DNA from: a virus
Lineage: Duplodnaviria; Heunggongvirae; Uroviricota; Caudoviricetes
IMG/VR virus record: IMGVR_UViG_2740892427_000003
Strand: one strand, 5' to 3'
Length of the DNA stretch: 53,833 nucleotides
The position numbers were made by a program, and so were the translations under genes. Shown in pieces: positions 28,300 to 42,646 of the stretch. Position 1 is the stretch's first letter. Each line of letters starts with the position of its first letter. The notes below the pieces were generated by a model that worked only from the letters and a program-made list of their open reading frames with translations, was not told the origin of the DNA and searched no databases.

Positions 28300-28626
28300 T
28301 CAGGGTGCAGAAGGACTAAAGATAAACGTTTTCTTCACGCCTTTACGCGGCCTGTCCTTCTCAAATCGCCATTTTGCCATCGCCTTTACAACCTGCTCAT
28401 CAAACAGATGGTGCGGCTCTGAACGGATAAACTCAATTCGGGTGACAGTACCATCAGCACCAATATCAAACTTCACATCAACCCGTCCCTTTATATAATT
28501 TGCCGCTGCATAGGCCGGATATTGTGGTAATGCCTTAACCAACTGTCGGGGCATATCTGTTTTATGTTGCGTACAGCCCATAACCAGAGAAGACAACAAA
28601 ATAATTAACGGAAGATTTCTTTTCAT
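28300..28626 (-). CDS. TonB C-terminal-domain lipoprotein
   Basis: Lipoprotein signal MKRNLPLIILLSSLVMGC; PQYPAYAAANYIKGRVDVKFDIGADGTVTRIEFIRSEPHHLFDEQVVKAMAKWRFE aligns closely with the E. coli TonB C-terminal domain as recalled. Start could instead be 28632 or 28641. Confidence 0.75.
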   Translation of the reverse strand: MKRNLPLIILLSSLVMGCTQHKTDMPRQLVKALPQYPAYAAANYIKGRVDVKFDIGADGTVTRIEFIRSEPHHLFDEQVVKAMAKWRFEKDRPRKGVKKTFIFSPSAP

Positions 28627-29156
28627 TTTCATTCCCGGCACAGATAAGAATAAGTCTTATTCTAACAATGCCACCCTGTCGGCCATCAATCCTCTGCTTA
28701 ATGGCAACGACAATTATCCGACTTAAATCACAAATCAGACACATGACATAACAGGTCTTGCGAGGTAACACATCGTCCGGTTTCTTCCACCATCGCACCG
28801 GACCAGCGACCATGAGGGGACAACGCCGCGCTCCGTTAACGCGGTAAACCCCGGTGTGTATCGTTTTTGATTATCCCCGCACACTCGCGCAGAGGAGTCT
28901 CCCGGTCGGGCTGCGGTCTCTGTTAATGCAGCGGATACCATGCGGCATTTAGCGGCATTCATCGTATACTCAACGGTTAGCTCTTCATTCGTGGCATTCA
29001 CCTGAAAGGTCCGGGAGTGTAATTGCGTACATTTACCACTGAACGAACCTTCAACAAGAACACGACCACGCTGCAAAATACGGAACGGAATTGTTCCCTG
29101 AAAAGGCTTTACGGTTACCAATAATTTCTGCATGCATTCTCCGAATAACAAAAATA

Positions 29157-29630
29157 CTAGTTAATACACTGAGTGCGGATATATTCCTGAAGCATTCTCA
29201 ATGCTGCCTGGTCGCTGATGATTCCGTCTCTGATACCGAGAACGTTTCGTCCAGCAACCGGAGAGAGTTCGACGGCGGCATCATTGCCCACGCCGGAGGT
29301 GCCGGTGGCTTCACGCACGGTACCGGGGCAGGTGGCGTTGATCCGCAGGCGCTTACGACCAGCGGCAACATCAGCACGCAGAGTTTCATTTTCAGCTCTC
29401 GCATCGGCTAATTCCCTCGAGTATTTTGCATCGAGCGCAGCAACATCGCGCTGGCGCACCTGCATATCAGTAATGGTTGCGTTTGCCAGCTCCAGCTCTC
29501 TGGCTTTTTTATCACGCTGCGCTTTGTAGGTGATGGCGTTATCGCGGTAATGATTCAGCCCCAGACTAAGCGCACCACAGACCACCAGCAGAATAACGGT
29601 AAACGCGGAAAGCATTCGGTTTATGCTCAC
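29157..29630 (-). CDS. Rz: i-spanin Rz
   Basis: 157 aa; [45 protein letters not shown] is lambda Rz-like. Confidence 0.9.
29198..29404 (-). CDS. Rz1: o-spanin Rz1, embedded in Rz in the +1 frame
   Basis: Lipoprotein signal [15 protein letters not shown] followed by a Pro-rich segment, nested inside Rz. Confidence 0.8.
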
Positions 29631-29758
29631 CCCAGCATCCCCGACGAAGATAACATCATCCAGCCCATGGAAAGAAAAAGAGCAACCAGCATTAGTGAAA
29701 ATGAAATGCCGATGATTACACAGAGGATCTTCGCCAGCATTATGAGTTTGTCTGACAT
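29627..29758 (-). CDS. small hydrophobic protein (43 aa) immediately upstream of Rz
   Basis: GGGAGG 7 nt upstream of ATG at 29756-29758; [43 protein letters not shown]; stop overlaps the Rz GTG. Confidence 0.4.
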
Positions 29759-29780
29759 GTTTAATCCTCCCTTCACGATT

Positions 29781-29957
29781 TCAACGCAATGACCAGTTTT
29801 GCCAGCCCATACAGCATCGGAGACACAGCGATATACCGACCGCCACCCACTTAATAGCAAAAGCCAGTGCTCTGCTGATGTCATCAGTTACTGGCGCTTT
29901 CAGTTCAAGGCCGTTTTTCATAGTCAACCTCAACAGAATTCGTTTATACTTTTCCAT
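29781..29957 (-). CDS. small protein (58 aa) with C-terminal hydrophobic segment
   Basis: AAGGGAGA upstream of ATG at 29955-29957; MEKYKRILLRLTMKNGLELKAPVTDDISRALAFAIKWVAVGISLCLRCCMGWQNWSLR. Confidence 0.4.
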   Translation of the reverse strand: MEKYKRILLRLTMKNGLELKAPVTDDISRALAFAIKWVAVGISLCLRCCMGWQNWSLR

Positions 29958-30113
29958 GTTCTCCCTTGCCTTATCCAAGGTCAGAAACACAAAACCCCGC
30001 TTGCTGCCAACAAACGGGGTTTTTACTTTTATTCACTTAGGTTTTGCCAGTTCGCAGGATTTCGTGTTATCCGTCCGCGTTGGCCAACGTCATTTTTCAG
30101 CAAAATATTCTGC

Positions 30114-30647
30114 TTATCTGTCGATACCCCAGCACGCCAGCGCGCTCTCCTGGTCACGACGGGATACCTGACCATAACAGTTATTTGAGCGGATACGGCA
30201 GTCTCTGCCACCGTCCTTAATCCACCAGCGAAGCGCCTCACACGCTCCCCTGCGATCTCCTGCATTAATTCGTTTATAAAACGTCGACGGGAAACACTTA
30301 CCCGGGCCAATGTTGTAAGGACAGAATGACGCAATACCCGCTTTCTGGGGTTCAGTCAGTGGCACTTTGATGTTTTTCTCCACCCATGCCAGCGCCTTAT
30401 CACGCTCAATGGCGTTAACCCGGTCGCATTTCCCCTTCGACAGCTTCATGCCAGGAATAACAGGCTTACCATCCACCCGGGTGGCTCCACGGCAGATGGT
30501 CCAGATACCCGCACCATCACGGTATGCCGTAGTGTGGTTACCTTCTTTTTCGTCAAGAAACTGGTCGAGGATTTCAGGCGCAGAAGCCCCTGCGGCAATC
30601 AACGCCAGAACGGCAGCCGACAGGCCGTATTTTATTTTTGTGTTCAT
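30114..30647 (-). CDS. R: SAR endolysin (lysozyme, glycoside hydrolase family 24)
   Basis: 177 aa; N-terminal weakly hydrophobic SAR-like segment GLSAAVLALIAAGASA, then lysozyme core (EGNHTTAYRDGAGIWTICRG). Confidence 0.85.
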   Translation of the reverse strand: MNTKIKYGLSAAVLALIAAGASAPEILDQFLDEKEGNHTTAYRDGAGIWTICRGATRVDGKPVIPGMKLSKGKCDRVNAIERDKALAWVEKNIKVPLTEPQKAGIASFCPYNIGPGKCFPSTFYKRINAGDRRGACEALRWWIKDGGRDCRIRSNNCYGQVSRRDQESALACWGIDR

Positions 30648-30683: not shown

Positions 30684-31088
30684 CTAAATACGCACTTTCA
30701 GATAAGTCAGTCCGGGATGAAGCCAGTAAGCCGGCACTTTTTTAAAGGGCGGATTATCAAAATCACGAAGAAGTGCCTCCCGCACAACTGAATCCTTGTC
30801 CGCACCACTGGCCAGCGCTTCAATCTCAGCGGCTACCTGCAGATACCCCATGCAACGACCAATGCGCTGCATCAGCCCCTGTTTTTTATTGTTCTTCAGG
30901 TAATCAATGGCAAATTCAATGAGCTCCTCACTGTGCTGGTGCGATGGAGGTGTTACTTTCCCATTTTCTGAGATGGTTATTTTCCCACCATCACCGGATA
31001 CAACAAAGGATGGCCGGTTACACTCCCATTCCAGCTCACTGAAATTATCATTATGAATACTGAAACACTCTGCGAGATTTCTGCTCAT
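30684..31088 (-). CDS. hypothetical protein B of a two-gene cassette inserted between holin and endolysin
   Basis: ATG at 31086-31088 overlaps the stop of the upstream gene (TGATG); 134 aa, no recognised domain. Confidence 0.5.
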   Translation of the reverse strand: MSRNLAECFSIHNDNFSELEWECNRPSFVVSGDGGKITISENGKVTPPSHQHSEELIEFAIDYLKNNKKQGLMQRIGRCMGYLQVAAEIEALASGADKDSVVREALLRDFDNPPFKKVPAYWLHPGLTYLKVRI

Positions 31089-42200: not shown

Positions 42201-42356
42201 TTACTTCTCAGATTCGTAGTCTACGAAGACAGCAACCTCCGTCTGGCCGGTTCGGATTCGTACCTCGCAGAGGTCTTTCCTCGTTACCAGTGCCGTCACA
42301 ACAACGGTAATACAGATGACGATCAGGGCGATTAACATCGCCTTTTGCTGCTTCAT
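42201..42356 (-). CDS. Hok/Gef-family type I toxin (hokC/gef-like)
   Basis: MKQQKAMLIALIVICITVVVTALVTRKDLCEVRIRTGQTEVAVFVDYESEK matches gef/hokC as recalled; ATG 42354-42356. Confidence 0.75.
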   Translation of the reverse strand: MKQQKAMLIALIVICITVVVTALVTRKDLCEVRIRTGQTEVAVFVDYESEK

Positions 42357-42646
42357 AGCCTGCTTCTCCTTGCCTTTCGGCACGTAAGAGGCTAACCTAC
42401 GTTTGTGAAGCATAGATTGGGCCTCAGATTAATGTTAAGCGTCCTGCAAGACGCGTAATGTTAACTGGGGCTTTTCTCTGTCTGCCTTACGGCGGCATGC
42501 CCGAGGCAGACAGCCTCAAGCACCCGCAGCAATTCTACTTAACTCTTCTTTCCCCGCAAACCGTTTTTATCCCCAGCGGCAAATCGAATACACCACCAGC
42601 GCCACCGCCATTGCAATACCAACATTTGAGAAGGCCTCAGGCCAGC

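Follow-up and report, generated by a model that had tools for sequence, protein, structure and literature searches.

The 53,833-nucleotide stretch of viral DNA considered here (IMG/VR record IMGVR_UViG_2740892427_000003, Caudoviricetes), called the window below and numbered over its whole length, carries a phage lysis cassette on its minus strand. The genes on that strand follow the order of an S21-type holin, two open reading frames (ORFs) of the YdfR region, the endolysin gene R, a hairpin, two small ORFs named ORF1 and ORF2, and the spanin gene Rz with the embedded Rz1. A previous sequence-only reading of this DNA regarded R and Rz as normally adjacent, and proposed that the two ORFs between them are small genes with strong ribosome-binding sites which could serve as lysis-timing or membrane-targeting accessory factors. 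Both belong to conserved phage families (phrog_1115 and phrog_4906) and, far from being absent from related prophages, are found at the same position in hundreds of them. The copy of ORF1 in this window is a frameshifted pseudogene allele.

ORF1 (29781-29957, minus strand) runs for 58 codons from the ATG at 29957 to the TGA at 29781, and is preceded by the Shine-Dalgarno-like sequence AAGGGAGA (29960-29967, minus strand). ORF2 (29627-29758, minus strand) extends from the ATG at 29758 to the TGA at 29627 and encodes 43 amino acids (aa), with the Shine-Dalgarno sequence GGGAGG (29766-29771, minus strand) located 7 nucleotides (nt) 5' of its ATG. These positions and both Shine-Dalgarno sequences agree with what had been read earlier. 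By chance alone ORFs this short are frequent (a count over 3.5 kb gave 49 that reach 25 aa), and hence the case for genes rests on comparison.

The intact form of ORF1 has 60 aa with a single membrane helix at the C-terminal end, and it matches the phrog_1115 profile over residues 1-60 (E = 1.4e-42). The allele of the window matches the same profile over residues 1-44 alone (E = 4.4e-29), and a short form of ORF1 matches phrog_4493 (E = 3.3e-23). Both phrog_1115 and phrog_4906 are catalogued PHROG families with the function label 'unknown'. In a sample of loci that was anchored on the hairpin and not on the ORF, the ratio of nonsynonymous to synonymous polymorphism (pN/pS) of ORF1 is 0.12, and a set of 24 nucleotide alleles taken from E. 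coli and Salmonella gives 0.21; the values for R, S and Rz in the same loci are 0.12, 0.14 and 0.45. Third positions account for 32 of the 49 variable sites in codons 13-60. These figures indicate that the ORF1 family evolves under purifying selection. A profile search of 1.84 billion representative proteins returned only 22 clusters of this family, with lengths of 20-87 aa, which have in common the motif MKNGLE.DAPVT.E together with a segment of amphipathic character and a helix at the C-terminus that ends in ..ALKS or ..IRWW; the family motifs are retained at 50% identity. With ORF1 as the query against one genome per species no relative was confirmed, probably due to representative genomes that lack this prophage type. 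The AlphaFold2 model of ORF1 consists of two helices, a short one at the N-terminus and a long one that spans residues 23-59, with a predicted local distance difference test score of about 90; the hydropathy peak is 1.88 and the net positive charge lies toward the N-terminal side. ORF1 represents a narrow family of enterobacterial-phage proteins, 48-60 aa in length, which have a conserved N-terminal segment (MKNGLE.DAPVT.E) with a predicted cytoplasmic location and, at the C-terminus, a membrane helix that is likewise conserved.

A database protein of 59 aa from a 554-nt contig (P0120) has the N-terminus of a pinholin (to ..SPSQW) fused to the C-terminal helix of ORF1; it arose either as a chimera during assembly or by recombination at a short stretch that the two sequences share. 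This protein, together with a local alignment of KWVAVGVAVSPMLYGL (shuffle z = 3.8-4.3), raised the idea that the ORF1 helix mimics the second transmembrane domain of pinholins. Such homology was rejected, as the profile-profile comparison with S21-type holins gave a probability of 1.5% and ORF1 also occurs with non-pinholin holins; a weak resemblance is what is left.

In the window, ORF1 carries a 2-bp duplication (TATAT in place of TAT, 29835-29831), so that GGTATATCG aligns with GGTATCG/GGTGTTG, as is evident from the alignment with phage PhiR12_1 (PV340549), which has intact copies. The duplication shifts the frame; this version reads ..ISLCLRCCMGWQNWSLR and loses the conserved C-terminal membrane helix. 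An out-of-frame remnant of the native C-terminus is aligned with the intact allele at 29773-29830 (minus strand, within an ORF at 29773-29850), and the native stop, TGA at 29775-29773, lies within it. The Prokaryotic Genome Annotation Pipeline (PGAP) labels ORF1 'frameshifted' at the identical locus of E. coli 2013C-3181 and 2013C-3033. The allele (at least 99% match) is present in 7 of the 1056 complete E. coli genomes carrying that part of ORF1, and among 33 ORF1 copies in viral contigs chosen by the hairpin, 27 are intact, two have the frameshift of the window, three are truncated and one is a fusion. The ORF1 of the window is an inactivated and rare pseudogene allele, and its 58-aa frame is not the native product. 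The true start of ORF1 is also uncertain, because the GGAG core of its Shine-Dalgarno sequence is just 3 nt from the ATG (AGGCAAGGGAGAACATG is retained in 115 loci) and an invariant internal ATG (M13) at 29921 has GAGG at 6 nt.

ORF2 encodes a single, strongly hydrophobic membrane helix (RefSeq WP_001280924.1; hydropathy peak 2.91, net positive charge toward the N-terminal side), in agreement with the single-transmembrane peptide of 43 aa described in the sequence-only reading. It matches phrog_4906 over residues 1-43 (E = 3.3e-20), and the homologue of Shiga-toxin (Stx) phages matches this family with E = 4.1e-32. Homologues were found in 191 phage records, many of them Stx phages. The ribosome-binding-site pattern GAAGGGAGGATTAA[AG]CATG is retained in 86 loci, the protein pattern.DKL..L.K.LCV..GI.F...LV....S..W..L...G is kept, and 169 copies are intact compared with 14 other variants, 13 of which are internally frameshifted. 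ORF2 is always directly 5' of Rz and its last codons overlap the Rz start region. There is also published evidence for translation. The ORF2 homologue of E. coli O157:H7 Sakai, XECs191 (now ECs_1966), is listed as a translated novel gene by ribosome profiling, with one predicted inner-membrane helix; in lysogeny broth its transcriptome and translatome values are 30.0 and 12.6 reads per kilobase per million (RPKM), with a coverage of 0.55 (PMC5597208). The ribosome profiling suggested by the sequence-only reading exists for a homologue, at a low signal. ORF2 is a probable gene. The nearest documented relative is XECs191/ECs_1966 (Hücker et al., 2017, PMC5597208), a direct homologue of ORF2 (MMGWLMISDKLITLVKSLCVLVGISF...) with a position immediately 5' of the Rz endopeptidase gene in Sakai prophage Sp10; it differs in having an antirepressor-like gene upstream instead of ORF1, and a longer N-terminus (49 aa).

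A terminator scan places a GC-rich hairpin, flanked by an A-tract and, on the opposite side, a T-tract, at 29981-30023; it resembles an intrinsic terminator on both strands. Such a hairpin is found 5' of ORF1-family genes in all contexts examined (also L087, L371, L373, L381, L393 and L394), and its stem sequence varies with the context. The plus-strand segment matching the hairpin and the predicted RNA folds with z = -3.1. The hairpin matches no Rfam family; a below-threshold hit to the rimP leader (E = 0.094) was taken as a terminator artefact. Facing the hairpin on the plus strand, and inside ORF1 codons 3-13, is a sigma-70-like promoter match found by consensus scan (TAGTCA, 18 nt, TATACT; 29921-29950); its score is 9/12, and chance alone would give roughly one match of this kind in the region. 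Its -10 hexamer TATACT is retained in 231 of 231 loci, and a distant homologue has the perfect TATAAT. Codons 3-13 are identical to that homologue at 31 of 33 nt (94%), and the next 81 nt at 49 (60%; Fisher p = 2e-4); synonymous diversity is 0.077 in codons 2-12 and 0.28-0.30 in the remaining gene. This opposite-strand site would produce an antisense RNA of about 80 nt over the ORF1 ribosome-binding site (promoter match and RNA together fall within 29921-30035, plus strand), a proposal that we rate low; the conservation of the ORF1 5' end could equally stem from the ribosome-binding site of the M13 start. On the coding strand between R and Rz, a consensus scan, which is weak evidence, gave no match to a sigma-70-type promoter.

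The R-Rz junction was surveyed in about 370 fetched loci. Of 5426 complete E. coli genomes, 990 carry at least 80% of the ORF1-ORF2 region, and the order from S and R through the hairpin, ORF1 and ORF2 to Rz is seen in about 75 of 80 viral contigs. Four forms of the junction recur. The first is that of the window, with the hairpin, ORF1 and ORF2 between R and Rz. The second, with the antirepressor-like gene ant and ORF2, is that of numerous Stx phages such as phiON-2011 and Sakai Sp10, and here ORF2 remains joined to Rz where ant takes the place of ORF1. The third has the hairpin and a short ORF1 (50 aa, ending in ..IRWW). The fourth has the hairpin and a third small membrane ORF (phrog_6632, ending in ..GQIRWW), and is the commonest in hairpin-anchored contigs. 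R and Rz are directly adjoining in Qin and Sakai Sp3. Hence the statement that R and Rz are normally adjacent is correct for such lambda-type cassettes and fails for the phage group of the window, in which nearly all R-Rz junctions hold a small membrane ORF, with or without ant.

In Salmonella, ORF1 is located between a SAR-type (signal-anchor-release) lysozyme and Rz in cassettes with PF16080 holins, and in an S21-type cassette it comes after an antirepressor-like gene. The neighbouring endolysins of the family mostly have SAR-type N-termini. Some distant relatives form tandem units of hairpin and small ORF, two of which follow one another in L394. In an M15-peptidase cassette (L087), a 60-aa lipoprotein (2149-2331; lipobox LLVGC, phrog_7528) that starts with MNR.. 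like Rz begins one base past the stop of the short ORF1, and a recognisable Rz-type spanin was not found in this cassette.

The ending ..IRWW or ..LRWW is shared by several small membrane ORFs that are otherwise unrelated (L085, 2699-2851; L248 and similar loci; L393, about 730-830; L394, 325-504 and 597-737). Before Rz, the codons for this ending (TGG TGG TGA A ATG) also resemble an Rz ribosome-binding site; the motif is present without Rz downstream as well, and therefore it may be a C-terminal motif at the protein level. Some alleles of ORF1 or ORF2 (P0008, P0177, P0195) run into ..EPPRESWRLN.. or ..EPPRVSWRVFYL, tails that resemble what we take to be translation across the end of an IS3-family (IS629-like) element. 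If this is correct, insertion sequences have hit the R-Rz junction in some strains.

The core lysis genes around the junction are as follows. The S21-type class II holin (pinholin; 31676-31891, minus strand) has 71 aa and a dual start (MYQM...), is named 'class II holin family protein' by PGAP, and aligns with other S21-type holins. The endolysin R (30114-30647, minus strand; 177 aa; Pfam Phage_lysozyme, E = 1.6e-24) begins with MNTKIKYG and has an N-terminal, weakly hydrophobic segment of SAR type, MNTKIKYGLSAAVLALIAAGASAP, with a hydropathy peak of 1.78 at residues 9-27. The i-spanin Rz (29157-29630, minus strand) matches Pfam Phage_lysis (PF03245, E = 1.1e-39), and the o-spanin lipoprotein Rz1 (29198-29404, minus strand), in the +1 frame inside Rz, matches Pfam Rz1 (PF06085, E = 6.9e-21). 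The overlap of the ORF2 stop with the GTG of the Rz frame, as described before, is confirmed (GTGA, with the GTG at 29630), and PGAP prefers the ATG at 29615, 15 nt past it. Related loci have ATG-AAC-CG (MNR) in the Rz start region where the window has ATA-AAC-CGA; therefore the Rz start here is either the GTG or a downstream ATG. The GTG would be at least as plausible as the ATG chosen by PGAP, because it retains a basic N-terminus (VSINRM...), which is expected at the cytoplasmic end of an i-spanin.

Other genes and RNAs of the window were noted in passing. Two ORFs (194 and 135 aa) at 30684-31672 (minus strand), between the holin and the endolysin, jointly match one PHROG profile of 296 residues, phrog_1085, and PGAP calls the first of them in an identical genome an incomplete YdfR-family pseudogene, which suggests local decay of the lysis region in this prophage. 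The ORF directly past Rz (28735-29151, minus strand) is likewise incomplete according to PGAP in the identical genome. The next gene on the same strand, just downstream of the spanins (28300-28641), encodes 113 aa with a TonB C-terminal domain (PF03544, E = 5.8e-15). The Rfam matches of the window above the gathering score are a sok antitoxin RNA (42351-42525, minus strand), two STnc100 copies and three tRNA genes, and the minus-strand coordinates of the STnc100 and tRNA matches are 34778-34990, 35270-35476 and 36601-36847.

Accessory genes in the slot between endolysin and spanin are not without precedent. LysA of phage P2 is reportedly a membrane protein that the phage can do without and that affects the timing of lysis; its gene lies in the interval from the endolysin gene K to the spanin genes lysB and lysC. 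It is larger than ORF1 and ORF2 and has several membrane helices; the likeness is one of position. Another system to compare is the 'releasin' gp25 of phage Mu (DUF2730), a small membrane-tethered cytoplasmic protein from a lysis cassette that partners a SAR endolysin having a short basic cytoplasmic N-terminus (Chamblee et al., 2022, PMC9239132). ORF1 is similarly predicted to be tethered to the membrane and the R of the window has such a start (MNTKIKYG); however, the helix of gp25 is N-terminal and that of ORF1 C-terminal, and ORF1 has no DUF2730 match in Pfam. A SAR endolysin with a basic N-terminus is beside ORF1 in E. coli and in most Salmonella cassettes, but not in the GH19 and M15 cassettes. 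The lambdoid morons, described as extra DNA between genes that adjoin in related phages (Juhala et al., 2000, as cited in PMC4104026), offer a further parallel. ORF1 and ORF2 are present or absent at a junction that is closed in Qin and Sp3, are bounded by a terminator, and the family occupies several late-operon positions. In a classic moron the gene is preceded by a promoter of its own and followed by a terminator, whereas here a coding-strand promoter was not found and the hairpin is upstream; the two ORFs fit only half of the definition of a moron. With the hok/sok type I toxin-antitoxin system, ORF1 would share a small hydrophobic membrane protein and, as a candidate, a short antisense RNA over the translation start; it differs in that neither homology nor a toxin promoter was found, and in its C-terminal helix.

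Sequence searches of Pfam, NCBIfam, PADLOC and the PDB returned no significant match for ORF1 or ORF2. Among these, Pfam and NCBIfam gave no match of either ORF to antiholins or holin regulators (the families of lambda S107, T4 RI, P1 LydB and P2 LysA), and relatives of ORF1 are not consistently paired with one holin type. The Pfam hits to Rz and Rz1 are confined to the downstream genes, and ORF1 and ORF2 have neither a lipobox nor a periplasmic domain. The defence models of PADLOC match none of the long form of ORF1, its short form, ORF2 and the third small ORF. The possibility that ORF2 is a duplicated membrane helix of Rz was unconvincing (shuffle z of -0.6 for the Rz of the window, 3.1 for lambda Rz and 2.7 for the other Rz type), and YnfQ and YnfR of K-12 are unrelated and lie away from the R-Rz junction. 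A literature search for ORFs between R and Rz and for the peptide string gave no relevant result.

We favour the reading that ORF1 and ORF2 are optional genes of the late (lysis) operon encoding single-pass inner-membrane proteins, which modulate events in the envelope during lysis and are not essential; taken as a whole, this statement is tentative and is held with somewhat less than even confidence. Its parts differ in strength. Comparison shows that the members of the ORF1 family are genes, and the same holds for the membrane character, the optional nature, the fixed order and the overlap of ORF2 with Rz. PGAP annotates both ORFs, and the PHROG matches, the selection, the synteny and the membrane character are in line with this reading. 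In the proposed mechanism, the cargo sits in the endolysin-spanin junction of prophages with a pinholin and a SAR endolysin, and, as the coding strand shows no promoter match from R to Rz, its only route of expression would be Q-antiterminated late transcription that passes through the hairpin. Translation of ORF2 may be coupled to that of Rz. Both proteins would insert into the inner membrane late in infection with the N-terminus inside, since the net positive charge is on the N-terminal side, and might then tune pinholin triggering, SAR-endolysin release or the action of the spanins without being core lysis proteins.

The lysis-timing or membrane-targeting role named in the sequence-only reading is plausible as a proposal, and several observations weigh against it. 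An unrelated antirepressor-like gene occupies the same slot, so position alone is no proof of a lysis function, and lambda, Qin and Sakai Sp3 do without both ORFs. The prophage of the window tolerates a broken ORF1. A relative of ORF1 accompanies a cytoplasmic GH19 endolysin and a lambda-S-type holin in Salmonella, and the short form is found in a cassette that encodes an M15 peptidase as well as two holins; in all, relatives co-occur with four holin/endolysin types (holins of PF04971, PF16080, PF05106 and PF16931/PF05449). More distant relatives are located outside lysis cassettes: some come after tail-fibre genes, one is close to a tape-measure-like gene and one precedes a portal-like gene. 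The proposed role is weakened because the relatives accompany these four types and non-lysis genes. As for ORF2, its pN/pS of 0.45 points to weak constraint, third-position bias is absent, further open frames cross its region, and the Sakai footprints (translatome RPKM 12.6) are low and come from uninduced cultures.

These same contexts are the ground for the main rival explanation, itself unlikely, that the ORFs are moron-type cargo with a role other than lysis, such as exclusion of superinfecting phages or a change of the host envelope, possibly expressed in the lysogen. The junction behaves as a variable slot that accepts ORF1 with ORF2, ant with ORF2, the short ORF1 or the third small ORF, and the relatives near tail-fibre, tape-measure-like and portal-like genes each have their own hairpin. 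A related small ORF in L394 matches phrog_35629, labelled in PHROGs as 'membrane protein; moron, auxiliary metabolic gene and host takeover', and footprints on the Sakai homologue were seen in uninduced cultures, but these could reflect spontaneously induced cells. Moreover, no coding-strand promoter match was found upstream, the hairpin precedes the gene rather than following it as in a classic moron, the spacing to Rz is tight or overlapping, and PADLOC has no match. In a different and rather improbable proposal, the chief use of ORF2, and of the further small ORFs that stop at the start of Rz, is to keep Rz translationally coupled after cargo has parted R and Rz, and the peptide matters little. 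Where cargo is absent, the stop of R overlaps the start of Rz; all small ORF types end somewhere from an overlap to 19 nt short of Rz, an ORF2 variant with an internal frameshift keeps its ATGA overlap with Rz, and the amino-acid constraint on ORF2 is weak. Yet the N-terminal two thirds of ORF2 (.DKL..L.K.LCV..GI.F) are conserved together with W33, L36 and G40, the ..IRWW C-terminus occurs without Rz downstream, and the strongly constrained ORF1 would be left unexplained.

The conserved 5' end of ORF1 gives rise to the doubtful suggestion that ORF1 and its hairpin form a unit under a cis-antisense small RNA, similar to type I toxin-antitoxin systems, with an RNA running from ORF1 codons 3-13 to the hairpin and covering the ORF1 ribosome-binding site. 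The opposite-strand match (TAGTCA/TGGACA, 18 nt, TATACT) with its invariant -10 hexamer, the perfect TATAAT and near identity of codons 3-13 in the distant homologue, the low synonymous diversity, the T-runs of the hairpin on both strands and the fold of the predicted RNA are all consistent with it. Against these are the 9/12 promoter score with its chance expectation of about one, and the lineage L394, which has no well-spaced match; the conservation could also reflect the M13-start ribosome-binding site or mRNA structure. Furthermore, Rfam has no match, a separate promoter for the ORF1 mRNA was not found, and those Hfq-bound prophage small RNAs of Sakai in Table S2 of Tree et al. (2014) that were located map elsewhere. 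A broader version, equally a long shot, holds that hairpin and ORF1 are a self-contained mobile module in which antisense RNA from the ORF1 5' end controls a C-terminally anchored membrane protein that, with ORF2, sets the lysis timing of the pinholin, SAR endolysin and spanins. If true, the module would either found a new class of regulators of phage lysis or be an element of type-I-toxin-like kind, and roughly one in five complete E. coli genomes, those of Shiga-toxin strains among them, would carry it. Finally, that the ORFs are chance frames in a spacer, without a functional protein, is very improbable and already disfavoured. Short ORFs are plentiful, the ORF2 region is open in other frames and the ORF1 of the window is broken; this explanation has to contend with the purifying selection and third-position bias of ORF1, family motifs that persist at 50% identity, conserved Shine-Dalgarno sequences and ribosome footprints on the ORF2 homologue.

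In terms of significance, ORF1 and ORF2 are ordinary hypothetical genes that are already annotated, in an arrangement typical for the phage group, and at the level of the window the message is smaller, as one of the two 'genes' is a pseudogene allele. A 2021 survey of the lysis cassettes of 279 Stx phages describes the holin, the SAR endolysin, the Rz spanin and Ant, and its searched passages make no mention of the small ORFs (PMC8136144). What lends these genes relevance is how widely they occur in E. coli, Shiga-toxin phages included, together with the ultra-conserved and unexplained segment at the 5' end of ORF1. If they do not modulate lysis, they are routine hypothetical prophage genes. 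In Stx phages, lysis also controls the release of the toxin; hence, if ORF1 and ORF2 modulate the timing of lysis, they would be a new component of the pinholin/SAR-endolysin pathway with a possible effect on the kinetics of toxin release.

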